Source: an uncultured Saprospiraceae bacterium (GTDB taxonomy: Bacteria; Bacteroidota; Bacteroidia; Chitinophagales; Saprospiraceae). Taken from it: a stretch of 64,000 bases of DNA. Below the pieces are notes generated by a model. That model did not search any database. It was not told where the DNA came from and worked only from the letters and a program-made list of their open reading frames with translations. The translations under genes and the position numbers were made by a program. Within the stretch, counting starts at the first letter, position 1. Each line of letters begins with the position of its first letter. Location: NCBI GenBank assembly GCA_964471595.1, contig CAYYGN010000006.1:26494-90493 (forward strand), read 5' to 3'. Positions 1 through 19,300 of this stretch are shown here, piece by piece.

Positions 1-1785
1 GACGGAGGCTTCATCAAAACGGGCGGTTTTCCACAGGGCCAGCCCCCATTCCATCCATGCGCGCGAATAGGAAGGATCATGGCGGGTAGCCGCTTCAAAG
101 TGGTGGATGGCCCTTTCGTAATTGCGGAGGGCAAACCAGCCGAGGCCGGCATTGAAATGGGCGAGGGCAAAAGCCGGCTCCCGCTCGAGCGCGCGTTCGC
201 ATTCGCGGATGCCATCTTCCGGCCGGCCTGTGGCGACCAGCAGTCCGCCGAGATTGGCGCGGGCCAATGTCCAGGTAGGGCTGTAGGCCAGCGCCTTCCG
301 AAAGCAGTATTCGCTGTCGGCGAGCCGGTTTTCCCGGCGGGCCAGCAGGCCCGTTTCGTTCCAGGCGTAGGCCGCTGTCGAATCCGAATCCAGCACCATG
401 TATTGCCATTCGCGGGCCTGGCGCAACAGGGAGGTGTCTCCGGTCCGTTCGGCTTCCAGGCGCAAATGAAGGCCGCGGAAGTAGGCTTCGCGTCGCCGGA
501 TTTCGGGATACAGAAAATGGCTGTTGCCCAGCAGGGTGGCCGAGCGATGCAGGTACTCCGGGTAAAGGGCATATCGCTGGTCGTGCGACCAACGCCTTTG
601 CAATTCGGCGGGGCTGGCGGCGAGATAGTCGTTGATGGCGCGTTGGGATTCATCCTGAAGGGCGGCGGCCAGGTCCAGTCGCATGGCGAGCCGGAAAGGC
701 GCCATACGCTCATGGGTGTGGATGCGCTGGTAGATATCCCAGGCGGAGGCACCTTCGGGCTGAAGCAGATGACCCTTGTGCAGGGCCTCCTCAAACCGGA
801 GATAAAGTTCCATGATCATGGAATCCGAATCCATGACGGACGGGATGCCTTTCTGGCGGACAGGTGTGTCGGGTGATTGATTCTTCTCTTTTTCACGGAG
901 GGCTCTCAGGTCGGCGAGGGCATCGGGGTCCACCCGGCTCATGGTCAGACCTTTGTCGCCGGTCACCAGGGGGATCTGGCTTCGTGGCGACACAGCAGCA
1001 GGGACATGATCCTCCAGATAGCGCTGCAATTCGAGCAGGGACACTTTGAGGTCTTCGTTGCGGTCGGCGAGGCCGGTGAGTCCGTCGAGGAGGTACCAGG
1101 TGAAGACGCCGTGGCCGCCACCCCATTGGATGCCCTCATTGCTGGACTCAGTGGGCTGGCAGGAGAGGACCTTGACTTCGCTGGCGTATTGGTCCACAAG
1201 GGCTTTGGCCGTGGCCTGAGTGCCGGCGTATTCCGATCCGGCCAGCGCTCCGGCGCGGCAGGCATCGGTGATGACGATGACCTGGGCCTGGTTTTTGGTG
1301 CTGAGGGTCCGGATGATGCCCTGGAGGATATGGAGCGGGAATCCCCCGATCATGTAATTGTTGGCCGGCATGTCATAAGCCAGGAGGTAACCGTTGTTGC
1401 TGATGGTCTGGTTTTCCATGTCGCCATGCCCGGAGAAATATAGAATGGCCGCATCTCCCGGTTTAGTGTTTTCCAGGAGCCAGGTATAGGCGCCGCCCAT
1501 GCGGGCAAAGGTGGCATCGGCATTGGTGAGCACCCGGATGTTGTCGGGAGGTACTTTTCCTCCGGCAGGGGACAACAGCCATTCGGCAAATGCCTCGGCA
1601 TCGCGGTGGGAAAACTGAAGGCGGGGTATGCGGCTGTCCTGGTACTCGGATACGCCGATGATGACCGCCCGGGTTTGGCCGGTGGGTTGGACGGGACGGA
1701 TCTGGGCCGCAACCGGTTGTAAAGACCACAGGCCCAACAAGCCGAAATAAAATGGCAGAGCGACAATTTTAATATTGAACCGCAT
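1..1785 (-). CDS. Exported caspase-like (peptidase C14) protease with TPR repeats, paralog 1. The C-terminus runs off the left window edge.
   Basis: Hand translation of the minus strand from the ATG at 1785 gives MRFNIKIVALPFYFGLLGLWSLQPVAAQ (signal peptide). It continues ...RAVIIGVSEYQD...FSHRDAEAF...LYFSGHGD (catalytic His)...VITDACRAG (catalytic Cys)...LSCQP...GIQWGGGHGVFTWYLL...DRNEDLKVSLLEL, then TPR-like helices. The frame stays open to base 1 (595 codons). It is absent from the ORF track because there is no stop inside the window. It is clearly paralogous to 2632..4875 and 6236..8473. Confidence 0.8.
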   Translation of the reverse strand, partial: MRFNIKIVALPFYFGLLGLWSLQPVAAQIRPVQPTGQTRAVIIGVSEYQDSRIPRLQFSHRDAEAFAEWLLSPAGGKVPPDNIRVLTNADATFARMGGAYTWLLENTKPGDAAILYFSGHGDMENQTISNNGYLLAYDMPANNYMIGGFPLHILQGIIRTLSTKNQAQVIVITDACRAGALAGSEYAGTQATAKALVDQYASEVKVLSCQPTESSNEGIQWGGGHGVFTWYLLDGLTGLADRNEDLKVSLLELQRYLEDHVPAAVSPRSQIPLVTGDKGLTMSRVDPDALADLRALREKEKNQSPDTPVRQKGIPSVMDSDSMIMELYLRFEEALHKGHLLQPEGASAWDIYQRIHTHERMAPFRLAMRLDLAAALQDESQRAINDYLAASPAELQRRWSHDQRYALYPEYLHRSATLLGNSHFLYPEIRRREAYFRGLHLRLEAERTGDTSLLRQAREWQYMVLDSDSTAAYAWNETGLLARRENRLADSEYCFRKALAYSPTWTLARANLGGLLVATGRPEDGIRECERALEREPAFALAHFNAGLGWFALRNYERAIHHFEAATRHDPSYSRAWMEWGLALWKTARFDEASV

Positions 1786-1926
1786 GATCTTGTTTCCGAA
1801 TTCGACAGGTGCCACCGGGATATGGTAATGGCACAAGGTAATGATTCCGGTCAAAGACCATCACGGCCCTGTCGCGTATCGTGGCCTGGCCGTGAAACAT
1901 GTATATTATTCCAAAGCAATTCCCTG

Positions 1927-2622
1927 TTATTGGGTATTGCCTGTGGAAAGTATCGAATCTCTGAGCCTTTCCCTGAACTCGTGATGGGTACCGTCCATTA
2001 CGACGTCAATGGTTCTGCCGGGGTTGATGGTCGTTGTCAACACTGGGTCCTCTGATTGGAGGGCTTGAATACCTAGATACCCTGTGCAATCCTGAGTGGG
2101 ATCCAGCAGCAAGGAAATTTGGAAGGCACCGTTCGAATTGGTTTCTGTCCTGACGGTTGTGCGGCGCATGTCAAAAACTGTTCTCCCTGCCAGCGGATTC
2201 CGTGAAGCATCCACCAATCTTCCCGAGAACATTGCAGTATCTCCCTCCTGGCAGGTTTCTATGTGAAGTGTCTGCATATCATTGCCATAAATGGCGGCCA
2301 TAACTTCAGTCGGGGCGTCGTGGATTTGGACTTTAATCGTATCGCCAAGTTCGCTTAAAATGAATTGGATGCGCTCATTTTGCAGGATATCCAGCACGAG
2401 GGGATTCCCCTTTTTGATTTTCAAGTGGCCGTAAAAAAACGGATTGTCATCGACAAAGCGATTGACTTGAACATCCGAAAATTCGCCATCGCCCTGCAGA
2501 AACCAAAACTGGGTGCCGGCATAATATACCGTGGCAGGCTTGTCGGGTTCACTGACTTTTTCCTTGCAGGATGAAACAATGACCATCAAAGTCAGAAGCG
2601 AGATAAAAAGTGCGTTTTTCAT
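1927..2622 (-). CDS. Lipoprotein with a CarboxypepD_reg-like beta-sandwich segment (partner lipoprotein L1)
   Basis: The N-terminus MKNALFISLLTLMVIVSSC is a signal peptide plus lipobox Cys. The segment GRLVDASRNPLAGRTVFDMRRTTVRTETNSNGAFQISL fits the carboxypeptidase-regulatory-like pattern. The C-terminal motif is IDVVMDGT. It starts 9 nt downstream of the caspase-TPR gene 2632..4875. Confidence 0.6.
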   Translation of the reverse strand: MKNALFISLLTLMVIVSSCKEKVSEPDKPATVYYAGTQFWFLQGDGEFSDVQVNRFVDDNPFFYGHLKIKKGNPLVLDILQNERIQFILSELGDTIKVQIHDAPTEVMAAIYGNDMQTLHIETCQEGDTAMFSGRLVDASRNPLAGRTVFDMRRTTVRTETNSNGAFQISLLLDPTQDCTGYLGIQALQSEDPVLTTTINPGRTIDVVMDGTHHEFRERLRDSILSTGNTQ

Positions 2623-2631
2623 AAGTAAGAT

Positions 2632-4875
2632 TTATTTGTTTTCTAATTGAAATTGTTCGGCTTTTTCCCGAAATGCCGGCTTTTCGAACAGCCAGGAGCG
2701 GAGAGGTTCGCATTCGCACTCGGTCATTTTAACATTGATTGATTGTAGGGCTATTGTTAACTGGGCCATAGCTTCCTTCTCATTATTTTCAAAGGATGCT
2801 TTGCAGGCACGAAAATATGGAGCAAAATAGGCGTCCGGCGCCAGCGTTTCCAACAAAGTGCATTGTTCCTCCAAATCGGTCCAACTTCCGGTTTTAAAAT
2901 ACAAATCGGCCATTCTGTAGCGAAGAGAAACATGCCGGGGGTCCTTTTCTGCCGCCGTCAGGTAGGCGGCTTCAGCAGCATCGTAGAGCTCCTTCTGGAC
3001 AAATAGATACCCCAGCATGAAATAACCCGTAAATTGGTCGGGCTGCATGACCAGAGAGGTTTCGAAAGCGGTTTGGGCTTCGTCAAGGCGGCCGAGATTC
3101 TGAAGGCAGGCGCCGATGTTCAGCCAGGCCAGGTGGTCATCCGGTTGGGATTGCAGGGCCTGGTAATAAACGGCCATGGCCTCCTCCCATTGTTCCCTGA
3201 AGTAAAGCAGGCTTGCCTTGGCCTTTAGGGTGAAATTGTGGGTGGCATCAATGGCCAATGCCTGGTCAATAACCACGGACGCTTCATCAAAACGTTTGAA
3301 CTGCCGCGACAAATAATACCCCCACCACGCATGCGGCGCCAGCCACCCGGGGTCCATGTCCACCGCCTTGTGGTAATAAAATTGGGCGGAATCATATTCT
3401 ATGACCCGGAAGGCATAAATATCCATTAAAAAAAAGGCGGCAACGGCATTATCCGGTTCTTGGTCCAAAGAGGCTTGAAGGTGGTGGATGATGGGCTTGA
3501 TGGTGGCCCAATCCCGCTGGGTTCTGGCGGCATAATTCAAACGCAATCCCTGAAAGAGGTGGAGACGGGCCAGCAAGGTGCGAGTGCGGGGATCATGGGG
3601 GCCGAGCAATTCGGCGGCTCGTTCGAGGTAGGCGGGATATCCGGCAAATTGCTCTTTGAGCAAAGGGGCGGAGCGGGAAAGTTGCTGGATGTCTAGTTGC
3701 AGGTATTGATTCAGAGCATGCTGGGCGTCCATCTGGAGATGGGCGACAAGATCCCGCTGCAGATCGGCATGGATGGCGGCCAGGGAGGAGTCCTGCACCA
3801 GCAGATTGTAATAATGGTCGGCACAGTCGCCCGCAGGATGCAGCAGGCGTTTTTCCTCCAATGCGGTTCGGAAAGCCCTGTACAGGTCGAGCGTGACGGA
3901 ATCGGTGCCGGCCAGGAGCCGATCGTATTTGTTGGACCTCGGCAAGGCCGGCAGGATGGTCATGAGCTCCCTTCCTTTTTCGCGGTTCAACCGGGCGAGG
4001 GTAGGACCATGAATGCGGCCGATGATGCGGGTTTCGTCGCCCCGGACAAGCGGTACCTGTCGCACCGGCATCATGTCGCGGGACACCTCCTGTTTGACAT
4101 GGGCGGCCAATTCGTACAGGGAAATGAGTTCGTCCCCGTTCTGGTCGGCCAGCCCGAGAAGGCCCTCCAGCAGGTGCCAGGTAAAAGCGCCCTGCCCCCC
4201 TCCCCATTGCGGACCCTCGTGACTCAGTTCATGCGGCTGGCAGGACAGGATCTTGAGCTCGTGGGTGTACTGGCGGGCGAGGTCGTCGCCAAAGACACGG
4301 ATGCCGGCGTTGTCCTGGAGGCCGCCACTGCGGCAGGCGTCGGCGATGAAAAGGACCTCGCCTCCTTTTTCCACCGACATGGTGGTGATGGCCTCCTGCA
4401 GGGCGGAGAGGGCCAGGGCCCCCGACATGCTGTATTTGCGAACGACGGCGTCGGTGCACAGGAGATAGCCGGCGCGGGAGCCACCGGACTGTGCGTCGCC
4501 ATGCCCGGAAAAGAACAGGATGGCCCTCTCCCCGGGTCCTGTCTCCTCCTGGATCCAGTCGAGGGCAGCGACCACGTTGCCGTGAGTGGCATCGCCATTG
4601 AGCAGGAGGCGCAGGTGTTCGGCGGGGATTGCTCCTCCTGCCTCCGACAGGAGATAGGCCGCAAAAGCTTCTGCATCGCGATGGGCAAAGCGGAGATCTC
4701 CGAGGGTGGTATCCCGGTATTCGGAGATGCCGACGACGACGGCCCGGGTGACCGGAGGCGTGAAAGCGGGCCGGATCTGCGCCGCGAGGGACCCTGCCAT
4801 CATGACCAGTCCCGTCGCCATCAGGACGATCCGGCAGCCGATGAACGGCACGATGCGTCGGAGAGGGTGGGACAT
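2632..4875 (-). CDS. Exported caspase-like (peptidase C14) protease with C-terminal TPR repeats, paralog 2
   Basis: 747 aa ORF. Hydrophobic N-terminus ending ...SLAAQ. C14 motifs: RAVVVGISEYRD, FAHRDAEAF, FFSGHGD (His), FIADACRSGG (Cys), LSCQP..EGPQWGGGQGAFTWHLL. EF-hand-like loop DQNGDELISLYEL. The C-terminal half is TPR-like, e.g. AWLNIGACLQNLGRLDEAQTAFETSL and AEAAYLTAAEKDP. Confidence 0.85.
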   Translation of the reverse strand: MSHPLRRIVPFIGCRIVLMATGLVMMAGSLAAQIRPAFTPPVTRAVVVGISEYRDTTLGDLRFAHRDAEAFAAYLLSEAGGAIPAEHLRLLLNGDATHGNVVAALDWIQEETGPGERAILFFSGHGDAQSGGSRAGYLLCTDAVVRKYSMSGALALSALQEAITTMSVEKGGEVLFIADACRSGGLQDNAGIRVFGDDLARQYTHELKILSCQPHELSHEGPQWGGGQGAFTWHLLEGLLGLADQNGDELISLYELAAHVKQEVSRDMMPVRQVPLVRGDETRIIGRIHGPTLARLNREKGRELMTILPALPRSNKYDRLLAGTDSVTLDLYRAFRTALEEKRLLHPAGDCADHYYNLLVQDSSLAAIHADLQRDLVAHLQMDAQHALNQYLQLDIQQLSRSAPLLKEQFAGYPAYLERAAELLGPHDPRTRTLLARLHLFQGLRLNYAARTQRDWATIKPIIHHLQASLDQEPDNAVAAFFLMDIYAFRVIEYDSAQFYYHKAVDMDPGWLAPHAWWGYYLSRQFKRFDEASVVIDQALAIDATHNFTLKAKASLLYFREQWEEAMAVYYQALQSQPDDHLAWLNIGACLQNLGRLDEAQTAFETSLVMQPDQFTGYFMLGYLFVQKELYDAAEAAYLTAAEKDPRHVSLRYRMADLYFKTGSWTDLEEQCTLLETLAPDAYFAPYFRACKASFENNEKEAMAQLTIALQSINVKMTECECEPLRSWLFEKPAFREKAEQFQLENK

Positions 4876-4890
4876 GGCGGATTCAGGAAT

Positions 4891-5547
4891 TCAATCGAGC
4901 TTATTGTCCTTTTGACTGCCATCCAGAAATACGTCGAGTTCAATGTCACTGGGACTATTCGATGATAGCAGAATTCTTACGGTATACTCTCCTGGATTCC
5001 AAAAGCGCAAGTCCTTTGAACAATTATTTGAGGACGTGTCGTCAGGTATGTGTAATGAATAGGAATAAACGCTATCCCTAGAAGTTGTATCCCTGCGTTG
5101 GGCAGTCCCAAAATAACTGATCGTTACCGGACCATCGGTGTCTCTAGCCGTACCCCTTAATCTCTTTTGCATGTTATTGCAAGTAGTATTTGAAGACCTT
5201 TGTTGTAGCCTTGTAACCATTGAATCAATTCTACTATGACTATCCATGAATTTGATGGATACGGATGTGTGATTAGAGGCCTGGAAGGTTACTTTGTCAT
5301 CTTCGGCGATAGTTAGTTTTACAGTATCTCTTGATCTTTTAGATCCGGACCTCAATTGCATATTTTCTCTAGTGTGGTTAAATTCATAATTGGAATTATC
5401 TTGCGTGAGGGCAGATAAAACGATCGTTTTTGTGTTTAAAATTGCTGGAGACTCCGTCCCTGCATCGGGGGGTGTGGGCGTCTCTTTTTTCTTGCATTGA
5501 CTCATCAGAAGGATGGAAGCAAGCGCCAAGTAGATCGCATTTTTCAT
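4891..5547 (-). CDS. Lipoprotein, Ser/Thr/Asn-rich (partner lipoprotein L2)
   Basis: The N-terminus MKNAIYLALASILLMSQC is a signal peptide plus lipobox. The C-terminal motif LDVFLDGS is shared with L3. The DNA is visibly AT-richer than the flanking genes. The gene ends 15 nt upstream of the paralog 2 start. Confidence 0.55.
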   Translation of the reverse strand: MKNAIYLALASILLMSQCKKKETPTPPDAGTESPAILNTKTIVLSALTQDNSNYEFNHTRENMQLRSGSKRSRDTVKLTIAEDDKVTFQASNHTSVSIKFMDSHSRIDSMVTRLQQRSSNTTCNNMQKRLRGTARDTDGPVTISYFGTAQRRDTTSRDSVYSYSLHIPDDTSSNNCSKDLRFWNPGEYTVRILLSSNSPSDIELDVFLDGSQKDNKLD

Positions 5548-5582
5548 ATTGTCGGAATTTTTTGTTGGTGAGATATTTTGAT

Positions 5583-6224
5583 TTATTTAGGGTCAATCAT
5601 GTCCGTGCTGTCATCCAGAAACACATCGAAGAGCGTGTCCGTATCCCCGTTTTTGACGAGGGTCATCTGCATGCGGTAAGTCCTGGATGAGGTTTTGGTG
5701 ATGGGAGTAGCCTGGCTTTGATCGTGAAGTACAGCATAGGAACGGTTGAAGGCGCCAGAGTCATCGGTAAATGCCTGTCGGTCCTTGACCTCGATGACAC
5801 CGTTTTCAATGGGGGCTTCATTTTCGATGTACAATTTTCCTTCCAGCTTTCTCCCTCCATCATGGCACGTTTTATTCGGCCAAAGCAGGTGATCCAGACT
5901 GATGCGCAGGGTGTGGAGTTGGGTTAATCCGGCATTAATCCGGAAGCGTGTTTCCCGGTAATAATTTCCGGCATCCAGGGTGTACATCGTCCCTTCCTCC
6001 CAAAATACCGGCTCTGTCGTTATGATGCTGGGTTCATGGTCACCTGTTGCCAGCGTGGCATTGGATAATAGGTCACCACCCGGATTGGTCACCTCCAGTA
6101 CGATTTCTTTCCGGTACACCAGGGCTGTGTTTTGCCCGTCTCTTCCCGGCCAGGGAGCGAGGCAGCCGGACATCAGAAGGGTCAGAGGCGAGATGAACAT
6201 GAGTTTGCGCGCAAAGGAAGGCAT
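5583..6224 (-). CDS. Lipoprotein with a CarboxypepD_reg-like segment (partner lipoprotein L3)
   Basis: The N-terminus ...ISPLTLLMSGC is a lipobox. The segment GKLYIENEAPIENGVIEVKDRQAFTDDSGAFNRSY fits the carboxypeptidase-regulatory-like pattern. The C-terminal motif is FDVFLDDS. It starts 11 nt after the paralog 3 stop. Confidence 0.6.
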   Translation of the reverse strand: MPSFARKLMFISPLTLLMSGCLAPWPGRDGQNTALVYRKEIVLEVTNPGGDLLSNATLATGDHEPSIITTEPVFWEEGTMYTLDAGNYYRETRFRINAGLTQLHTLRISLDHLLWPNKTCHDGGRKLEGKLYIENEAPIENGVIEVKDRQAFTDDSGAFNRSYAVLHDQSQATPITKTSSRTYRMQMTLVKNGDTDTLFDVFLDDSTDMIDPK

Positions 6225-6235
6225 TGGCTTGTCTT

Positions 6236-8473
6236 TTATTTGAAGTGTTCGGATAGCAGGTTTTGAAATTCCTGCCGGGACAGGCAGGTCGCCAGGTTCT
6301 TTTTTTCATCCAGTATTTGCCGGTCGTTCAGTCCTGCGGCCATGGCCTGTTGCAAATGGGCGAGTGCCGGCTCCCACTGTTCCTGCAGAGCCGCCAAATA
6401 GAATTTGTAATACGAAATAAAATATCCACCCGGGGAGACCTGTTTTTCCATCTCCCACACCAGGGGTTGGGCCTGCACCCACTGTCCGGTTTCCAGATAA
6501 TAATCTATCAGATGAAGGTAGGGTTCAAGGCGTTTGGGGTCGATTTCCATGACCTTCCGGCAGTGGGGTTCCCCCTCATCCCAACGGCCCGATTTGACAT
6601 AGAGTTTGCAAAGGCCGAGGTGTGCCGGCACCTGCCGGTCCTTCATAGCCAGAGATTGCCGCAGAGCCTTCTCCGCTTCGACGGGATTTTGGAGGATGAT
6701 CCAGGCATAACCAATATTGGCGTGCAGGATGTAATCCTCCGGATCCAGGAGCAGGGCGTTTTGGTAGCCTTTGATGGCGGCGTGAAAATCGCGGATCCGG
6801 TAATGGTAATTGGCCATCGCCTTGGCGTGAAAGGCGTTACGGGAATCGCACTGATGCCCTGCGTCCAGCACCTGCCATGCCTCCTCCCGGTGGTCCGCTA
6901 CCTTGCTCAGGCATTCGCCGAAAAACGTATAGGGCATCACCCAATCCGGGTAGAGGCGGGTCACTGTTTGAAAATAATACCGGGCGGTGTCCACCATGAC
7001 CGGTTTTGTCCTTGAGCAGGCGGCTTCCATCAGATAAAAAAGAGCCAGTCGGTTTTCGGGATCGTGTGCCAGGACTTCCTGCAGGAGGGGCGCTATGGCG
7101 CCGTAGTGTTCCGGTCCTTTCTGCCCAAGGGATTCGAGATAGGCGAGGATGCCCCGGAAAAGATTTTTCCTGGTTTCCAATTCGCGGGTCAGTGCATGGC
7201 GGGCGCCCAGCACTTCCATCGCTTTGTCCAGGCGGGGAATGTAGAGCGCGTATTCGCGGATGCGCTCATCCCCGGGTTTGTTGAGCTCTTCTCCTTCCAC
7301 GAGGATCAATTGGCGCATCATCTGCTGGGCGTCTTCCTGGAGGGCGATCGCATATTCCCGGCGGAGGAAAGGGTGGATATCGGCCAGGGCACTTTCCTCC
7401 AGCAGCAACCGGAAATAATGGTCGGCGCAATCGTTGGCGGGTTCGGAGAAAGCTTTATCACGGAGGGCCTTGAAAAACAGCCGGTAATTGTCCAGGTGGG
7501 AGGAATCCACCCGGGCGATCAGGGCTTCCTCTTTCCGGCTTTTGGCATGGGTGGAGAGCAGAAGTTGTACCGGAGGCTTTTCGATCGTGCCCGCCAGAGA
7601 TGGGGAGGAGGGATCGATGAAGGCGATGGCCTGATCTTCTTCCTTGGCCGTGATGACGGGGTGCTGCCGGAGAGGGGCCAGGTCTTCATTGATGGCATCG
7701 TGCAGATAGCGCCTCAATTCGGAAGCCGTCACCACATCATCCTGGTTGTGGTCGGCCATGCCGGTCAAACCTTTGATGAGGTAGTGCGTGAATACGCCTT
7801 GTCCCCCGTTCCATTGGGGGCCTTCCTGGCTGAACTGATCGGGTTTGCAGGACAGGAGTTTGATCTCGTTGGTCGCCTGGCGCTGCAGGCCTTCACGGCC
7901 GAGGGCGCCTTCGTCGTCAATCCGCGCATCACCGAGTTTGCCGGCGCGACAGGCATCCAGGATGACGATAACCCGTGCTCCGATCTCGCTGGACAGGGTG
8001 GTGATCTCTTCCTGGAGATCCCGCAGCTTGATGGCGCCGCCCAGGGAGTAGGACTGGTCGGTGGCGTCATGGAGCAAAAGATACTCGGGCCGGGACACGG
8101 TTTTGCCCACATCGCCATGGCCGCTAAAGTAAAGGATGACCTGATCGCCCGCCCGGGATTGTTGGCGGAGCCAGTCCAGCATGGTGCGAAAACGCGCTTC
8201 GGTCGCATCGCCATTGGTCAGCAGTTGGATGTTTTCCGGTGCCACCTGTCCGAGGGCACCGGCCTCGAGCATCCGGACGAACAACGCCGCATCGCGATGG
8301 GCATACCGGAGATGGCCTACCCGGGGATCCTGATATTCGGAGATGCCGACGACGAGAGCCCGCGTCACTCCTTTTGGACGGATGGGCTGTACCTGTGCAT
8401 CCGCCCGGCAACAAGCGGCCAGCAGCCCTGTGAGGAGCAGATGCAGGATCTGTAAGGCAGGGCGCCGGGCCAT
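6236..8473 (-). CDS. Exported caspase-like (peptidase C14) protease with C-terminal TPR repeats, paralog 3
   Basis: The track ORF is 6236..8557. I place the start at the internal Met at 8473 (MARRPALQILHLLLTGLLAACCRADAQ, signal-like). Motifs: RALVVGISEYQD, YAHRDAALF, LYFSGHGD, VILDACRAGK, LSCKP..EGPQWNGGQGVFTHYLI. EF-hand-like loop DHNQDDVVTASEL. The C-terminal half is TPR-like. Confidence 0.85.
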   Translation of the reverse strand: MARRPALQILHLLLTGLLAACCRADAQVQPIRPKGVTRALVVGISEYQDPRVGHLRYAHRDAALFVRMLEAGALGQVAPENIQLLTNGDATEARFRTMLDWLRQQSRAGDQVILYFSGHGDVGKTVSRPEYLLLHDATDQSYSLGGAIKLRDLQEEITTLSSEIGARVIVILDACRAGKLGDARIDDEGALGREGLQRQATNEIKLLSCKPDQFSQEGPQWNGGQGVFTHYLIKGLTGMADHNQDDVVTASELRRYLHDAINEDLAPLRQHPVITAKEEDQAIAFIDPSSPSLAGTIEKPPVQLLLSTHAKSRKEEALIARVDSSHLDNYRLFFKALRDKAFSEPANDCADHYFRLLLEESALADIHPFLRREYAIALQEDAQQMMRQLILVEGEELNKPGDERIREYALYIPRLDKAMEVLGARHALTRELETRKNLFRGILAYLESLGQKGPEHYGAIAPLLQEVLAHDPENRLALFYLMEAACSRTKPVMVDTARYYFQTVTRLYPDWVMPYTFFGECLSKVADHREEAWQVLDAGHQCDSRNAFHAKAMANYHYRIRDFHAAIKGYQNALLLDPEDYILHANIGYAWIILQNPVEAEKALRQSLAMKDRQVPAHLGLCKLYVKSGRWDEGEPHCRKVMEIDPKRLEPYLHLIDYYLETGQWVQAQPLVWEMEKQVSPGGYFISYYKFYLAALQEQWEPALAHLQQAMAAGLNDRQILDEKKNLATCLSRQEFQNLLSEHFK

Positions 8474-8719
8474 GGCCGAGGTGTTTAGGCGAACCGAAAA
8501 TAGGGAATGGCGATCAATTCCCCGTGAAAATGTCACGAATGGCTCGCATTCGGCCATTTATTTGATATCAGAGACCAAGGTTACCCCTCAAACGATCGCC
8601 ACGGATATCCGGGTCAACAGGGCATGGCAGCCGGCAAAAACGGGCGCAGACAGGGAAATCCGGAAGCGGCATGTGTCGAGTCACTCAGCAGGAAAATGGA
8701 TTTTTTCGGGCACCGGGCA

Positions 8720-8751
8720 TTGACATATTCCCCGTCGGGGTATTATATTTG
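8720..8751 (+). promoter_or_regulatory. Candidate Bacteroidota sigma-A type promoter (-33 TTG / -7 TAnnTTTG) for the 8790 gene
   Basis: TTGACA lies at 8720-8725 and TATATTTG at 8744-8751, about 38 nt upstream of the ATG at 8790. It matches the published TTG/TAnnTTTG consensus for Bacteroidetes. This is sequence-only evidence. Confidence 0.3.
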
Positions 8752-8789
8752 ACTATACTATTTCTTTACCCTTCCTCAAAGCAACCCCC

Positions 8790-10178
8790 ATGCAAAATTT
8801 GACTACCGGAATTTCCCGTTTGCTGACGTTGGTTTTGGTGTGCGCCATCGGGTGGACAGCCCGCGCCCAATCCAATGATTGTCCTGTGCCCGTCATTGTC
8901 AATGAAATGATGCCGGCGCCGGTGGGTTTCGAGATCCTGGATCTCCAGAACAACGCCCTTCTCCTGGTGGACGAAGGCGGTCAGCCGTCGGCATGCAACC
9001 TTACGCCCGGCCAAACTTACAGGATGCGGGTTTTCCGAAGTGGCCATGACGCCACCGACGTCACGACCTATGACATTCTTAGTCTGGTGCGCCGGATGGC
9101 CGGTCATGGAGGCATGGAGGAACGCGACCGGCAGATGGCCGGCGATTTCAACGCTTCCGGAAGTGCCAGCATGGCGGATGCGTTGGCCATGCGTCATCAG
9201 ATCCTGCATCCACCGCTTGCCTTGCCCGAAGGCCTTCGCACCTGGTCCTTCGCCGATGCAGAAGTGGTGGAAAGTGGCAAATCCTTTCCGCAGAATGGCA
9301 CATTCACCTACAGCGGACCCGGCCAGGAAGTGCCTTTCTACGCCATCAAAAGGGGTCGCACGCGGCCATCTGCCTTCGACTACGACCAAATGGTCATTCA
9401 GGATACCTTGTTCTTCGAGGTCAGCGATTTCCCTGTTAGCAAGGGCGAAGTGTTCGAGGTTGGGCTTCGGGCCTCAGCCCTGCCTCCTTTGACAGGCTTG
9501 CAACTGGCCCTTGTTTCGCCAGGAGATGTCGTTCGTTTCCTTGATCCGGATCCCGGGCAACCCCTTCCGCCGCACGGCCATTTTGTCGGCGACCGCAGCA
9601 TCAACGGCGGCCGTTTGACTTTTTCCTGGATGTGGCCGAATGTGCTGTTGCCGGGAGGGCTCAGCCTGGCGGACGGGCAGGACATGTTGCGCGTTCGTTT
9701 CCGGGCCCGAAAGGACGGGATGGTCCACGATGCCTTTGCCACTGACCCCGCTTTCATGCGGGCGGAGGCGTATGACGACCAGGACAGGTTTTATCACCTT
9801 GCCCTGAAGTTTGTTCCCGCCCCCTATGAGGGGCCTGATTTCCCGCAGGAACAAGACGGAGAAACAACCGGGGAGGGGCAGTTTCTGCCCCCTGAGCAAG
9901 CCGCGAATACCCGTTATGACGGCGTGTCCGGCATACGGGTATGGCCGCATCCGGTCAACGAAGACACGCAGATCCGGTTTGAACTGGAGGAGGCAGGCCC
10001 GGTGGTGATTTTCCTTCGCGATTTGGCCGGACGTGTGGTTGGCGAGCGGCGATTGGCATCCGCAGGCAAAGGACCCCATCAGGTAGCCATTCCCGAGGCG
10101 GGAAGCTGGATGCCTGGGGTGTATACGATGGAACTCCGGTCACCGGGGGGTGTGCAGACCCTTTTGTTGGTCAGATGA
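8790..10178 (+). CDS. Secreted protein with a T9SS (Por) C-terminal sorting domain and possible dockerin-like and cohesin-like segments
   Basis: Signal peptide MQNLTTGISRLLTLVLVCAIGWTARAQ. The C-terminal ~80 aa (VWPHPVNEDTQIRFELEEAG...GVYTMELRSPGGVQTLLLVR) has the typical T9SS CTD pattern. GDFNASGSASMADALAMRHQIL resembles a dockerin EF-hand half-repeat. GEVFEVGLRASALPPLTGLQLAL is cohesin-like. Confidence 0.75.
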   Translation: MQNLTTGISRLLTLVLVCAIGWTARAQSNDCPVPVIVNEMMPAPVGFEILDLQNNALLLVDEGGQPSACNLTPGQTYRMRVFRSGHDATDVTTYDILSLVRRMAGHGGMEERDRQMAGDFNASGSASMADALAMRHQILHPPLALPEGLRTWSFADAEVVESGKSFPQNGTFTYSGPGQEVPFYAIKRGRTRPSAFDYDQMVIQDTLFFEVSDFPVSKGEVFEVGLRASALPPLTGLQLALVSPGDVVRFLDPDPGQPLPPHGHFVGDRSINGGRLTFSWMWPNVLLPGGLSLADGQDMLRVRFRARKDGMVHDAFATDPAFMRAEAYDDQDRFYHLALKFVPAPYEGPDFPQEQDGETTGEGQFLPPEQAANTRYDGVSGIRVWPHPVNEDTQIRFELEEAGPVVIFLRDLAGRVVGERRLASAGKGPHQVAIPEAGSWMPGVYTMELRSPGGVQTLLLVR

Positions 10179-14292: not shown

Positions 14293-15903
14293 TCATTCCT
14301 CCCCGCCGGCCTCTGAAGGCAGCACCCCGTCCACCCGGATACGCTCCTCCCGGTTGGCCAGTTCCCAGGCGAGATGGAACACCAGGCGGGCCACTTTTTC
14401 CGTGCGGTCAAAATCAATCTTGTCCAGGGTGTCCGAAGGACGGTGATAATCCTCGTGCACCCCGCTGAAATAAAAAATGGCCGGGATCCCCTTGAGGACA
14501 AAATTGTAGTGATCGGAACGGTAGTAATACCGGTTGGGATCCGCTTCGTCATTATAGGTATAATCCAGCTCAAGCCCCGCGTGATCCCGGTTGACCTCCT
14601 CGCTGATGCGATGGAGGTCCGAACTCAGTTTGTCGGCGCCGATCACATAAATGTAGGCCGGGTTGTCCTTGTGTTTTTTGTCAGTGCGGCCCACCATGTC
14701 CACATTGATGTTGACCATGGTATTCTCCAGGGGGAATACCGGATTTTCGACATAAAATTTGGAGCCCAGCAAGCCTTTCTCCTCTCCGGTGACGAACAGG
14801 AAAAGTACGCTGCGTCGGGGCCCCATCCCTTTCTTCGCGGCCAGGGAAAGTGCCTGGGCCACCTCAAGCAGGCAGGCGGTCCCGGAGCCGTTGTCATCTG
14901 CTCCGAAAAAAATGTCGTCTCCCCGGCGGCCGAGGTGGTCGAAATGGGCAGTGAGGACCACGATTTCGTTTTTGAGAACGGGATCGGCACCTTCAACAAA
15001 TCCCAGGACGTTGTACCCGTAGGTGACTACATCGCGTCTTTTGGCGGTCAGTTCCCAATCAACGGGGCAGGACACGGGCGACGGCTTCCTGCCCTTGTTG
15101 ATCCGGTCGCGCTGACGGATGACTTCCTCATAAGCGGACCCCATCAGCGCACGGGCAGTCTGGGAGGAAAGGATGGCGAGGGAAGGCCAGTTGCCCTCCG
15201 GTGGTGTGCCGAGGGTGATGTTGGGGCCAACGGAAAATCGCCGGACCTGGTTGGCCAGCTTCTGGTAATCGGAGGCGATGAGGAAGACCGTTTTGACGCC
15301 CTTTTCCCGGGCGACTTCCATTTTTTTCATCCAGTTGCCGCTCCATTCGCCGGGCTCGGTCGTGCCGGTCAGCCGGTAGCGGCCTTTTTCGTTGACGGGT
15401 TCGCCGGCATAAATGAGGATGGCTTTGCCGCGGACATCCTCCCGGTAATCGGAATAGGCGGGATCATCAATGCCGTAACCGAGGAAAACGACGTCTTCTC
15501 CGGCGGTGACGGGGTTGGCGGCCCGCACGGATTTCATGCAGAGGAAATCCCAGAGGTGGCGATATTCCTGGGTGTCGATGCGCAGCCGGACATCTTCCCA
15601 ATCGGTGCGGGTGAACTGCACATCCTGAAACCAGGAGCCGTCCGGCCGGTGGGGCGGGATGCCGAAGCCGTGCAACTGGCCGGCGAGAAATTGGGCGGCC
15701 ATGTCGTTGCCGGGTGTGCCCGTCTCCCGTCCTTCAAGGGTTTCGCTGGCGAGGACAGAGAGGTACATCCTAAGGTCCTGGGCCGTGATGCTGGAAGCAA
15801 AATCCTCGCGGGTGTAGCGTTCGTTCTGGGCGTTCAGCCACCAAGGGAGGGCCGACAGCAGGGCGACGGCGCATAAAGCGTGGAAACGGTGATTCACGGG
15901 CAC
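14293..15903 (-). CDS. M28 family metallopeptidase with a PA domain
   Basis: Signal peptide. Zn-ligand contexts VLTAHFDHLG, ADDNGSGTACLLE and VTGEEKGLLGSKFY. Confidence 0.85.
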   Translation of the reverse strand: MPVNHRFHALCAVALLSALPWWLNAQNERYTREDFASSITAQDLRMYLSVLASETLEGRETGTPGNDMAAQFLAGQLHGFGIPPHRPDGSWFQDVQFTRTDWEDVRLRIDTQEYRHLWDFLCMKSVRAANPVTAGEDVVFLGYGIDDPAYSDYREDVRGKAILIYAGEPVNEKGRYRLTGTTEPGEWSGNWMKKMEVAREKGVKTVFLIASDYQKLANQVRRFSVGPNITLGTPPEGNWPSLAILSSQTARALMGSAYEEVIRQRDRINKGRKPSPVSCPVDWELTAKRRDVVTYGYNVLGFVEGADPVLKNEIVVLTAHFDHLGRRGDDIFFGADDNGSGTACLLEVAQALSLAAKKGMGPRRSVLFLFVTGEEKGLLGSKFYVENPVFPLENTMVNINVDMVGRTDKKHKDNPAYIYVIGADKLSSDLHRISEEVNRDHAGLELDYTYNDEADPNRYYYRSDHYNFVLKGIPAIFYFSGVHEDYHRPSDTLDKIDFDRTEKVARLVFHLAWELANREERIRVDGVLPSEAGGEE

Positions 15904-16325
15904 GGAATTTTGTCCACCCGGCGGGTATGACGCCCGCCATCGAAGGGGGTGGTCAGAAAGGTATTGACCATGGCGCGAGCCCGTCGCAGGGAGACAAATC
16001 GAGCGGGGATAGCGATGACGTTGGCATTGTTGTGGGCGCGGGCCAGGGCGGCGAGTTCGACGGTCCAGGTGAGGGCGGCCCGGATACCGGCGTGTTTGTT
16101 GGCCGCCATGGCCACGCCGTTGCCACTGCCGCAGATCACAATGCCCAGTTCGGCCTGACCACCGGCCACCAGCCGGGCCACGGCATGGGCAAAATCCGGA
16201 TAGTCCACCGAGTCGGGGCCGCGGGTCCCCTGGTCGAGGACGCGGTGGCCCTGCTGCTCCAGCATGCGGATGAGGGAGGACCGGTAGGTATATCCGGCGT
16301 GGTCACATCCGATGGCGATGGTCAT
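15894..16325 (-). CDS. rpiB: Ribose-5-phosphate isomerase B
   Basis: MTIAIGCDHAGY...DYPDFAHAVA...GIVICGSGNGVAMAANKHAGIRAAL...HNNANVIAIPARF is the classic RpiB/LacAB signature. Confidence 0.9.
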   Translation of the reverse strand: MTIAIGCDHAGYTYRSSLIRMLEQQGHRVLDQGTRGPDSVDYPDFAHAVARLVAGGQAELGIVICGSGNGVAMAANKHAGIRAALTWTVELAALARAHNNANVIAIPARFVSLRRARAMVNTFLTTPFDGGRHTRRVDKIPCP

Positions 16326-19300
16326 TGCGGCGGGGTTTTGGCGTAGGGGGCAAACATCTTTTCGAGCTGGGCGGCGAATTCCTCATCACCGGCATCCCGG
16401 GCCACCTTGATCAGGTCGTCCTTGGTGCGGTCGGTCAGGGCGAAGTCCTGTTCGAATCCGCTTTCCAGTTCCTTCACGCTGAGCGAGTAATAAAATTCGA
16501 GCCAGTCGCGGGTTTCTTCGGCCAGGACGGCGAGATGAGGCTTGGCCTTGTCATAGGCGTCGGCCTGGACATACACCATGATCATCGGGACGACCGAGTA
16601 GTCGAACCGGAAATTCATGTGGGGGAAAGCGCGGAAATAGATGTCCATCAGTTCGATGGCCTTTTCCTTGTTGCCCTGCCGCAGGAATTGGCGGGCGGCC
16701 CTCAGCATGGTATAGCGCTGGGACTGGATGCTGGGCATGTAGCTTTCGTCCACGAACAGGCGCATTTTGTCAAAATTGCCCCAGCGCCATTTGTCCCGGA
16801 CGTTTTCGAGCAGGAGATCGCTGTCCACCCGTCCGGCGCCGATGATGCCGAATCCCTGGTCACCCTGGGAAGGAACCGGTGATACCCGCAGTGCCAGACC
16901 TTCCAGGGACATGAAGGCCTGGAGGCCGAGCAGTTTTTCCTGTTGGCAGGTAACGGCAAAATAGATGGGCCGCTCGTGGATATTGGACACGATGATGTCG
17001 AGGACGGCCAGTTCGTCCTTGATGATGCTGTTTCCTTCCAGCCGGATGGGCAGCCGGTTGACGACCTGTCCGGTATCGGAAGGGGCGAGGACGCCGTTGG
17101 CCCGCATCCGCTCGATATCCAGGTTGAGGATCAGGTTGCGGGCGGGGACATAGGAATCCAGGCTGCGGCCGCTACCCAGAGGGAAGGGGTTGTCGGCCGC
17201 CATGAATTTCAGGGCTTCGATGGCGTCCATTTCCCGATTTTCGGCCTGCTGGGGGATGGGGAGCTGCACGCGCTTCATGCCGCGCAGGGCTTCCTGCGGG
17301 ATGGTCATTTTGACGGGGGGAGAGTCGTTGATTTTGCGGCGCAGATTGGAGATGTACCAGTCCACCGCGATGAGGCTGAGGTTGGCGACGCGGACGTCCC
17401 TGCGGATGCCCTCCACTTCCTGGGCATACCACAGCGGGTAGGTATCGTTGTCGCCGTAAGTGAAGATGATGGCATTGGGTGCGCAGGAATTGAGGAAATT
17501 GGCGGCGTAATCCCGGGAAGCCTTGTGATGGCGACGGCTGTGGTCGTCAAAGTTTTCAAACCCCATGATGACGGGGGCGGAGAGGACGACGAGCGTCGCC
17601 AGGGTTGCAGCGGGCGCCTGGCCCAATTTCACTTTTTCCAGGAACAGCCGGAACAGGGCCAGCACGCCGAGTCCTATCCAGATGGTGAAGGCGAACATCG
17701 AACCGGCGAGGACGTAATCGCGTTCGCGCGGCTCGCGGGGAGGCTGGTTGGAATAAAGGATGATGCCGATCCCGGTGACGAGAAACAGGACGAGGACGGC
17801 ATTGAACTCGCGTTTGGAACGCCGGGCCTGGAAGAACAGTCCGAGCAGGCCGAAGATCAGGGGCAGAAAGTAATAGGTATTCCGCGCCTGATTCTCCCGG
17901 ATCGATTTGGGCAGTTGAGACTGGTTGTACAGGTGCATGCTGTCGATGAAAGGAATGCCGCTGAGCCAGTGGCCGCTCCGCTTGTCCCAGGAGAAAATGC
18001 CCTGTTCGCCGTTCTGGCGGCCCACGAAATTCCACATGAAATACCGGATGTACATCCAGTTGATCTGGTAGTTGAAGAAGAACTTGATGTTGTCGGCGAA
18101 GGTGGGGGTGCCTTTTTTGTCACCCAGCCACTGCCGGTACAGGTCGCCCCGGGTGCCCTGGGTGTCGCTCATCCGCGGGAAAAGCATTTTGTCGCTGTCG
18201 CGGTACACATAGGTGATCTTCTGGTCAACGACCTCGTAGCCGTCGCCCACCCGGCCATAGCGGTCAGCCGTTTCGGTGCCGACGATGCGGGCATCGAAAT
18301 GGGGACCGCGGAAGAGGGGCCTTTCGCCGTATTGTTCGCGGTTGAGGTAGGGGACGAGGCGCATGGCGTCATCCGGTGCGTTCATGTTGATCGGCGGATT
18401 GGCCTTGGCCCGGATGACGACCATGCCGATGGTGGAATAACCCACCACGATGAGGCCGAGGGCAACAAATAGGTACTGCAGGTTTTGATTTCCCGTGCGA
18501 TGGGCGTGGCGCAGACCCAACCAAAGGATGGCTGCCACGAGCAGGACGAGGGGGATGAGGCCGGTGTGGAACGGCAGGCCCAACCCGTTGACCATGACGA
18601 GTTCAAACTTCGACCACAGCGTGGGCAGACCGGGTATGATCAGGCCCAGCATGACCCCGATGAAGAGGAATCCGGCGATGATGCCGATGAGGAGTCCCCG
18701 GGTGTTGGGGTTGGCCACCTTCTTGTAATAATAGAGGACGCCGAGGGCGGGAAAGGTCAGCAAGCTGAGCAGGTGGACGCCGACCGAAAGTGCGGCAGCA
18801 AAAAAGGCGAACATCAGCCAGCGGTCGCTTTCGGGGCGGTCGGGCAGGTTGTACCATTTTACCCCGGCCCAGAAGACGAGGGCGGTAAACATGGTGGACA
18901 TGGCATACACTTCGCCTTCGACGGCGCTGAACCAGATGGAGGTGGCGAATGCCGTCGAGAGTCCGGCGGTGAGGCCTGCACCGAGCAAAGCGTATTCCTG
19001 GGTCTGGGTGGGCTCTTCATTCCGGCCGGTGAGGGCCAGCTTGCCGAGGATCATGGTGGCCCAGCAGGTAAAGGTGGCGGCGAGGGCGGTACAGACGCCC
19101 GACATGAGGTTGACGGCAAAAGCGATGTTTTCCGGGTTGTCGCTGAACCATTCGGGGATCAGGGTGAACAGACGGCCCACCAATAGGAAGAAAGGCGCCC
19201 CGGGCGGGTGGACCACCTGAAGCTTGTAGGCGCCCAGAATGAATTCGCCGCAGTCCCAGAGACTTCCGGTCCGTTCGGCGGAAAAGAAGTACACCGTGAA

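Follow-up and report, generated by a model that had tools for sequence, protein, structure and literature searches.

What role is played by a group of exported caspase homologs whose genes alternate with genes for small lipoproteins at one end of a 64,000-nucleotide (nt) stretch of DNA from an uncultured Saprospiraceae bacterium? This stretch is here called the window, and its numbering is used throughout. A first-pass annotation, made from the sequence, had described three minus-strand paralogs, each with a signal peptide, a peptidase C14 domain and tetratricopeptide repeats (TPRs), interleaved with three small lipoprotein genes. Translation, Pfam searches and N-terminal features bear out this description; all six genes lie on the minus strand, and the gaps of 11, 35, 15, 9 and 141 nt, read from C14-1 to C14-3, are exact. 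We propose, with a probability of roughly one half, that the array encodes Arg/Lys-specific proteases of the periplasm or outer membrane, in which the TPR half would dock a cognate lipoprotein regulator serving as a tether or an inhibitor. What is new at this locus is a partner family linked exclusively to C14-TPR genes, together with a strain-level cassette polymorphism that spares the catalytic module. The parts of the array are given below; labels such as L001, L002 and L077 denote retrieved comparison contigs.

C14-1, 6236..8473, minus strand: 745 amino acids (aa), exported caspase-homolog protease with signal peptide, Peptidase_C14 domain, helical linker and TPRs
C14-1 constant half, 7214..8473, minus strand: aa 1-420, signal peptide, catalytic domain and linker
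C14-1 variable TPR half, 6236..7213, minus strand: aa 421-745
lipoA, 5583..6224, minus strand: 213 aa, lipobox LMSG/C, new lipoprotein family by profile
lipoB, 4891..5547, minus strand: 218 aa, LMSQ/C, same family, low in GC and more variable than any other gene of the locus
C14-2, 2632..4875, minus strand: 747 aa, exported caspase-homolog protease
C14-2 variable TPR half, 2632..3612, minus strand: aa 421-747
lipoC, 1927..2622, minus strand: 231 aa, lipobox VSS/C, same family by profile
C14-3, 1..1785, minus strand: third paralog, truncated by the window edge, without a downstream lipoprotein

The start of C14-1 was placed at the Met at 8473, which gives a signal peptide and is also the start called on the public contig L001; the open reading frame (ORF) is extendable to 8557. 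On L001, which is identical to the window, C14-3 is complete (775 aa), and the convergent gene that comes after it marks the end of the array.

The catalytic residues of these proteins are strongly conserved. Pfam Peptidase_C14 (PF00656) was found in all three paralogs at 59-64 bits against a cut-off of 21.4 bits (E = 3.8e-17 for C14-1, 5.6e-16 for C14-2 and 3e-17 for C14-3), covering model positions 3-202 in C14-1 and 3-223 in C14-2 and C14-3, out of 233. The first-pass annotation had named such a profile search beforehand as the place where degenerate or non-C14 N-domains would come to light; the search returned C14 domains with the His/Cys dyad intact. The motifs FSGHGD and DACR[AS]G, from which the dyad had been read, are common to C14-1, C14-2 and C14-3, and the Cys motif also fits the broader form DAC[RH]xG. 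His125, Cys181 and Asp179 (C14-2 numbering; Asp179 lies two residues ahead of the Cys) are invariant in 130 of 130 full-length relatives. Asp67 is conserved in 129 of the 130, and its placement in the S1 pocket is from motif position alone. Asp179 aligns with Asp211 in the DxC motif of Trypanosoma brucei MCA2, which we take to be an acidic S1-pocket residue; the PDB profile match behind this alignment, obtained with the catalytic domain alone, is weak (E = 0.16). Orthocaspases cleave after basic residues and possess two conserved pocket Asp residues (Klemencic et al. 2019, PMC6426788). Because of this alignment and the known preference of orthocaspases, the C14-TPR proteases are probably Arg/Lys-specific. 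With the full-length alignment as query, TPR proteins dominated the PDB profile search.

Beyond the catalytic domain, the C-terminal parts of all three paralogs match multiple Pfam TPR families (TPR_19, TPR_2 and TPR_1 in C14-1). The variable part consists of TPR to its very end, with no toxin domain by Pfam or NCBIfam. Pairwise identity among the paralogs is 31-35% over their full length and therefore reflects an old duplication rather than chance resemblance. Each N-terminus has a basic n-region and then a hydrophobic core, leading to a small-residue/Gln junction (AA/Q, DA/Q), and a hydrophobic signal sequence followed by such a junction is present in 107 of the 130 relatives, which fits the "Q-rule" of Bacteroidetes for signal peptidase I substrates. 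Neither a type IX secretion system (T9SS) C-terminal domain (CTD) nor a Por_Secre_tail was detected in any of the six array proteins by Pfam and NCBIfam scans. Since the proteases are without a T9SS CTD, they would be expected to reside in the periplasm or in association with the outer membrane.

This protease part of the locus is already known, as exported, TPR-fused C14 caspase homologs of the Saprospirales were catalogued in 2012, together with their expansion in the taxonomic order to which this genome belongs. The highest count in any prokaryote was 28 caspase homologs in Haliscomenobacter hydrossis, TPR ranked with the most frequent fusions, N-terminal helices were interpreted as probable signal peptides, and operons with several caspase genes were recorded in Bacteroidetes (Asplund-Samuelsson et al. 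2012, PMC3501461). The array resembles the catalogued homologs (PMC3501461, PMC6426788) in its p20-type C14 domain, His/Cys dyad, predicted acidic pocket and TPR fusion. These two surveys give no function, partner or population variation for the exported TPR class, and the lipoprotein family and block polymorphism described below were not noticed in them. Literature searches that combined Saprospiraceae with caspase, or peptidase C14 with lipoprotein, returned no description of such a pairing. In our own protein search, relatives were found by the hundreds in metagenome-assembled genomes (MAGs) of Saprospiraceae and Lewinellaceae, under the names "caspase family protein" or "TPR protein". Species-representative genomes hold at least 514 coding stretches of the family, often at several loci per genome and almost all in Saprospiraceae/Lewinellaceae. 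A detailed sample of 75 loci was fetched, with 130 full-length C14-TPR members; in it, tandem arrays of two to five C14-TPR genes are the rule, mostly with proteases abutting each other.

Two further kinds of gene were observed around such arrays in other genomes. A second, much more divergent class of ~630-670 aa, with a weak C14-like N-domain and TPRs, lies inside or beside arrays elsewhere (L004 5324-7342, L005 5600-7525, L036 3633-5564, L037 5973-7850, L050 3803-5710 and L059 824-2767) and has no member in the window. Their E-values with the family profile are 1e-27 to 1e-35, the Pfam C14 match is at 1.7e-5 or absent, and they may be pseudo-proteases. Caspase-fold neighbours of two kinds also recur beside the arrays of other Saprospiraceae, namely C14 fused to DUF4384 (~680 aa) and a signal-peptide protein with TPR_10/12 and CHAT (~1000 aa); examples are L013 1462-3528 and 4634-7768, with relatives in 7-10 loci. 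They point to larger neighbourhoods of caspase-fold genes.

The small genes of the array have no such history. lipoA, lipoB and lipoC matched no Pfam or NCBIfam family, the sole match being a sub-threshold CarboxypepD_reg in lipoC. lipoA and lipoB are 23% identical (E = 0.004) and colinear over their full length, and ORFs that lie between tandem C14-TPR genes at other loci are 190-250 aa long, carry a signal peptide ending in Cys and show weak mutual similarity. A profile built from these between-gene ORFs and run against the ~2,700 ORFs of all loci recovered seven further members at convergence, all of them co-oriented immediate neighbours of a C14-TPR gene, as a rule 4-73 nt downstream of it. 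In the scored gene set, non-seed genes 150-300 aa long that match the profile lie beside a C14-TPR gene in 6 of 6 cases, against a background of 33/175 (hypergeometric P = 3e-5), and within the 75 loci the family was found nowhere except beside C14-TPR genes. The prospect, raised in the first-pass annotation, that the lipoproteins are unrelated neighbours of the proteases is at odds with this linkage. Its picture of repeated modules of a protease and a partner stands as to the specific linkage, but pairing is exceptional among the proteases as a whole: a lipoprotein follows directly downstream of 13 of the 130 C14-TPR genes (~10%), in 15 of the 75 loci. The partnered proteases are short (733-773 aa, with one exception) relative to a family median of ~840 aa. 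A word-indexed protein search with the lipoprotein profile yielded only 9 proteins, so that an exhaustive HMMER search was needed; among 1.84 billion representative proteins this search found ~18 full-length family clusters, and its remaining matches were repeats of a generic beta-sandwich in giant proteins. Judged by sequence, the lipoproteins form one small, fast-evolving family without a previous name.

Members of this family share several hallmarks. The signal peptides end in LMSGC (lipoA), LMSQC (lipoB) and VSSC (lipoC), the lipoboxes of lipoA and lipoC are canonical, and the lipobox Cys is conserved in ~19 of 21 members. The mature part contains a Cys pair in most members, which is consistent with an oxidising compartment, as well as an L-x-G strand and a T-x-x-G-x-Y motif; near the C-terminus, a strongly conserved [IL]DV[FY]LDD[ST] motif is followed by a variable tail. 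An AlphaFold2 model of lipoB from a 21-sequence alignment (pLDDT 87, pTM 0.82) consists of two tandem beta-sandwiches, and Foldseek comparison of this model with the PDB returned generic Ig-like, CnaB, pilin and SusC-NTE domains with low TM-scores. The modelled fold is a binding or stalk architecture. A model of lipoA from an 11-sequence alignment reached a pLDDT of 53 and was discarded. At one other locus, a Cys-rich protein of 250 aa whose N-terminus has a hydrophobic segment lies between two C14-TPR genes (L079 12243-12995); it does not match the lipoprotein profile and may be an unrelated or very divergent type of partner.

A comparison of strains brought out a feature of the array that the first-pass annotation had missed, namely a block-wise divergence that takes in the lipoprotein genes and, for some alleles only, the TPR halves. 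The 3+3 array was recovered in five further independent allele sets, and the independent assemblies that carry it in a constant chromosomal context (M28 peptidase, HtrA, CorC and a T9SS-CTD protein) are L077/L078, L081-L084, L085-L087, L088/L089 and the Saprospiraceae MAG L002. Relative to L077, the sliding-window nucleotide identity is 0.98-1.00 outside two sharply bounded blocks:

Divergent block 1, 4750..7250: C14-1 TPR half, lipoA, lipoB and C14-2 signal-peptide codons; identity 0.39-0.92
Divergent block 2, 1930..3600: C14-2 TPR half and lipoC, with its downstream edge at the lipoC stop codon; identity 0.56-0.78

Nucleotide identity to L077 is thus 98-100% in the flanks, in codons 1 to ~400 of both C14-1 and C14-2, and in the whole of C14-3, which is uniform between strains (98-100%). 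The constant half of C14-1 is 98-100% identical to both L077 and L081 at the nucleotide level, with an aa identity of 0.96-1.00 and a synonymous divergence (dS) of 0.01-0.05, apart from a signal-peptide patch against L081. Within the same genes the TPR halves are far more divergent from L077: 80% aa identity and dS 0.43 in C14-1, against dS 0.01 in its catalytic domain, and 64% aa identity and dS 1.53 in C14-2, against 0.03 in its catalytic half. lipoC differs from its L077 allele to a similar degree (about 66% aa identity, dS 1.55), and the identities of the C14-2 TPR half and lipoC move together over four alleles (0.64/0.67, 0.83/0.80, 0.65/0.63 and 0.99/1.00). The C14-1 TPR half ranges from 0.78 to 0.99 aa identity across alleles, lipoA alleles are 55-77% identical among otherwise near-identical strains, and lipoB falls into at least three allele classes that are 33-39% identical to one another. 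Other strains have other mosaics; in L081, divergence is confined to lipoA (3' part) and lipoB (5' part). The order of conservation, from catalytic half through TPR half to lipoprotein, is also seen in unrelated lineages. As for the patch in the C14-1 signal-peptide codons (8251-8500), it has 93% nucleotide and 85% aa identity to L081 with a dS of 0.36, within surroundings of 98-100%.

Each allele set recurs in 2-4 independent samples, and the blocks are therefore not assembly chimeras. Across comparisons, dS is 0.14-2.8 in the divergent blocks and 0.01-0.06 in the catalytic halves, C14-3 and the flanks, while the ratio of nonsynonymous to synonymous divergence (dN/dS) within the blocks is 0.16-0.49, with the exception of lipoB against L081 (0.99). 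On account of these values, the blocks are old alleles spread by recombination rather than products of local hypermutation. An origin in a diversity-generating retroelement (DGR) is excluded by the high dS in the divergent blocks together with the lack of template repeats: a repeat search in 1-9000 found paralog-derived similarity only, and no recombination sites, inverted-repeat switches or DGR-like template repeats.

From the architecture, conserved catalytic residues, export signals, specific gene linkage and block-wise polymorphism of the array, we infer a localisation, an Arg/Lys specificity, a TPR-lipoprotein binding and a tethering or inhibitory role as follows. The large genes would encode Sec-exported caspase homologs (MEROPS C14, orthocaspase/metacaspase-like) held in the periplasm or at the outer membrane, with the N-terminal half (catalytic domain and linker) as the constant enzymatic module and the C-terminal TPR half as a docking module. 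The small downstream genes would give rise to membrane-anchored lipoproteins of two Ig-like beta-sandwich domains, the cognate partners of the TPR half. Recombination would swap, for some alleles, the TPR half together with the lipoprotein or lipoproteins downstream of it between strains as a cassette, with old allele classes being kept. The lipoprotein would then act as a dedicated tether or inhibitor that sets the place and time of protease action on the envelope or cell surface. We favour such a regulator in part because long-lived, co-located alleles are expected of a specific binding interface under diversifying pressure, and in part by analogy, because the KLIKK/potempin system, the closest precedent, is an experimentally established design in Bacteroidota. 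In Tannerella forsythia, the exported KLIKK peptidases form an array in which each is co-transcribed with a small lipoprotein and bound in a specific, stable outer-membrane complex, and potempins neutralise the KLIKK peptidases linked to them in operons (Ksiazek et al. 2022, PMC9890683). The T. forsythia array belongs to the same phylum and likewise has a lipoprotein gene directly adjoining a co-oriented protease gene (at 9-35 nt in the window). The two systems differ in several respects. Potempin genes lie upstream of the peptidase gene, whereas the lipoprotein genes of the window lie downstream; potempins are 98-132 aa with a single beta-barrel (OB or 8-stranded), in contrast to tandem beta-sandwiches and ~190-210 aa in the mature window lipoproteins; and KLIKK peptidases are serine or metallopeptidases with a T9SS CTD that ends in KLIKK, unlike the C14 cysteine proteases with TPRs and no CTD found here. 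Potempins inhibit the linked peptidase, and by analogy the window lipoproteins may do so. With respect to the undescribed envelope system that the first-pass annotation had suspected, the kind of protease and the overall design thus have precedents, and it is the partner family that is new.

Several observations weigh against a dedicated regulator. Because only ~10% of members have a lipoprotein, it is no general requirement of C14-TPR proteases, and a distinct partnered subfamily was rejected, as the partnered genes do not form one clade. In L081, a C14-1 TPR half of 99% identity stands next to a variable lipoA/lipoB segment, so co-variation of TPR half and lipoprotein is not strict, and linkage within recombination tracts could be a partial cause of it. 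The Foldseek search of the PDB found no inhibitor, gasdermin, effector or enzyme fold for the lipoB model, and inspection of the lipoprotein alignment by eye revealed no conserved basic bait loop. The residue at position -1 of the lipobox is Gln in lipoB and Q, N or K in about half of the family, which makes lipidation uncertain. Some of these points would suit a different role, possible but doubtful in our view, in which the lipoproteins anchor a soluble protease to the membrane, present substrates to it, or both, and owe their hypervariability to surface exposure to phages or competitors. Adaptors of this type include NlpI for Prc and LbcA for CtpA, and in Bacteroidota nutrients are captured by beta-sandwich lipoproteins of the SusE/F type. 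Lipoproteins made of tandem Ig-like beta-sandwiches typically serve as stalk or binding modules; an optional partner agrees better with an accessory adaptor than with an obligatory inhibitor; the partnered proteases are the shortest, as though the lipoprotein replaced extra repeats found elsewhere; and in L081 the lipoproteins vary without a change in the TPRs. A complex at the cell surface would be hard to assemble with proteases that are without a T9SS CTD, and the surface-export motif that follows the lipoprotein Cys in Bacteroidota is acidic, so that CKEK, CKKK and CLAP, the residues found there, match it in part only and do not establish surface export. Computation alone separates an adaptor from an inhibitor in no respect. 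In Prc-NlpI, CtpA-LbcA and BepA, envelope proteolysis is directed by a periplasmic protease that works with a TPR docking surface and with a lipid anchor, and the window array is predicted to combine the same three elements. The TPRs are carried by the lipoprotein in NlpI and LbcA and by the M48 protease in BepA, whereas in the window they belong to the C14 protease; moreover, Prc, CtpA and BepA are single-copy housekeeping proteases of the S41 or M48 families that are neither expanded nor polymorphic, unlike the C14 array.

It is improbable that the lipoproteins are instead substrates that the upstream protease processes, activates or releases, as a caspase-like protease does with bacterial gasdermin. 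The tight gene linkage would suit this, and the variable tail after [IL]DV[FY]LDD[ST] could be a processing site, but the tails are without a conserved Arg or Lys although the S1 pocket predicts a basic P1 residue, and several are without any basic residue; no similarity to gasdermins or effectors was found with Pfam or PADLOC, and the fold is a plain tandem beta-sandwich. A plain expansion of paralogs beside unrelated small genes, whose variability would reflect decay or dispensability, has a still smaller chance of being correct. Most arrays do lack lipoproteins, and lipoB has a low GC content and its dN/dS of 0.99 against L081. Yet the lipoprotein family is confined to C14-TPR neighbourhoods, its motifs and fold are conserved, none of its reading frames is broken in any of the six allele sets or in any lineage, and dN/dS values of 0.18-0.49 in most comparisons indicate that these genes are under constraint. 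The first-pass annotation had looked to bacterial cell death and defence for an analogy; the view that the proteins are cytoplasmic cell-death or anti-phage effectors, with a caspase joined to a repeat sensor, is largely refuted, and we give it hardly any credence. Its basis is a generic similarity. PADLOC matched the proteases to a caspase-domain model (E = 1e-11 to 1e-15) over ~160 of its 453 positions, with no match for the lipoproteins, no partner genes and no system-level assignment at the locus, and the best NCBIfam match, the EACC1-associated caspase model NF047832, reached 67-81 bits, far under its cut-off of 140 bits. All six proteins carry export signals, and the flanking genes are housekeeping genes (HtrA, CorC, M28 peptidase), with no NTPase, EACC1, gasdermin or nuclease gene among them. 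Gasdermin operons and EACC1/CATRA systems likewise combine a protease of the C14/CHAT fold with repeat domains, but these systems are cytoplasmic and have NTPase, sensor or effector partners, whereas the window array is exported throughout and has no such partners.

A bolder reading, which we hold to be unlikely, treats the array as a polymorphic envelope recognition system, in which a constant protease is combined with exchangeable cassettes of TPR half and lipoprotein that are kept by balancing selection in the form of old allele classes; the lipoprotein would mark or protect self, and the protease would strike non-cognate cells or invaders. Toxin-immunity cassettes such as contact-dependent inhibition (CDI) CdiA-CT/CdiI and Rhs pair a constant N-terminal and a variable C-terminal part with a small co-varying gene directly downstream, and are exchanged by recombination. 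The likeness of the array to them is in the pattern of variation only, long-lived allele classes included. In the array it is an enzyme that stays constant and a repeat scaffold, not a toxin, that varies, and there is no dedicated secretion system, delivery domain or orphan cassette. If this reading were true, filamentous Saprospiraceae would use exported caspases in strain-level self/non-self discrimination or inter-strain competition, a new use of caspase-like proteases; we know of no bacterial caspase homolog with a self/non-self role.

To our knowledge, almost none of the numerous bacterial caspase homologs has a known partner or substrate, and the exported ones have been neglected in favour of cytoplasmic cell-death systems. 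The locus provides a testable handle, as it couples a protease to a genetically dedicated partner family. Its natural allelic series in near-identical strains, with at least three lipoB classes and several variants of the TPR half, predicts interface residues, and C14-3, unpartnered and invariant, is an internal control. A cognate pair of protease and inhibitor or tether, if true, would extend the potempin principle to clan CD cysteine proteases and help to explain the dozens of such genes in Saprospiraceae.

With regard to expression, the first-pass annotation had suggested one long operon. The tight same-strand spacing is compatible with co-transcription of the array and no intrinsic terminator was predicted in its gaps, but the promoter and terminator scan performed no better than on shuffled sequences and gave no operon boundary. 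One further feature lies 5' of the array:

Intergenic region 5' of C14-1, 8474..8789: 316 nt between divergent genes, predicted as the likely promoter region of the array

The promoter scan of this region gave sigma-70-like matches of a generic kind and no others. The gap before C14-3 (1786-1926) is 100% conserved between strains, although the lipoC block directly next to it is highly divergent. An imperfect hairpin (CACGGCC...GGCCGTG) lies within the gap, which may include a separate promoter or regulatory element for C14-3. Base composition also varies along the array: lipoB has a GC content of 41.6%, with 41.6% at third codon positions, against 58% and ~69% in the adjoining C14 genes and 56% overall in the window, and lipoC (48%) and lipoA (52%) are likewise low. 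This suggests that the lipoprotein genes are imported alleles or are compositionally unconstrained.

Transfer RNA, tmRNA and Rfam searches at the gathering threshold gave no match in the whole window. The gene that diverges from the array (8790-10178, plus strand) encodes a secreted protein of 462 aa with no known domain except for a weak T9SS C-terminal sorting tail; it is syntenic, being 99% conserved in L077 and L081 and 84% in the more distant L002. In L002, a 557-aa protein with a weak M48 peptidase match and TPRs (BepA-like) is encoded on the minus strand at 15166-16839, ~1.7 kb past the orthologous array. Farther along the window, a stretch of lower GC content (48-51%) is located at ~30-36 kb.

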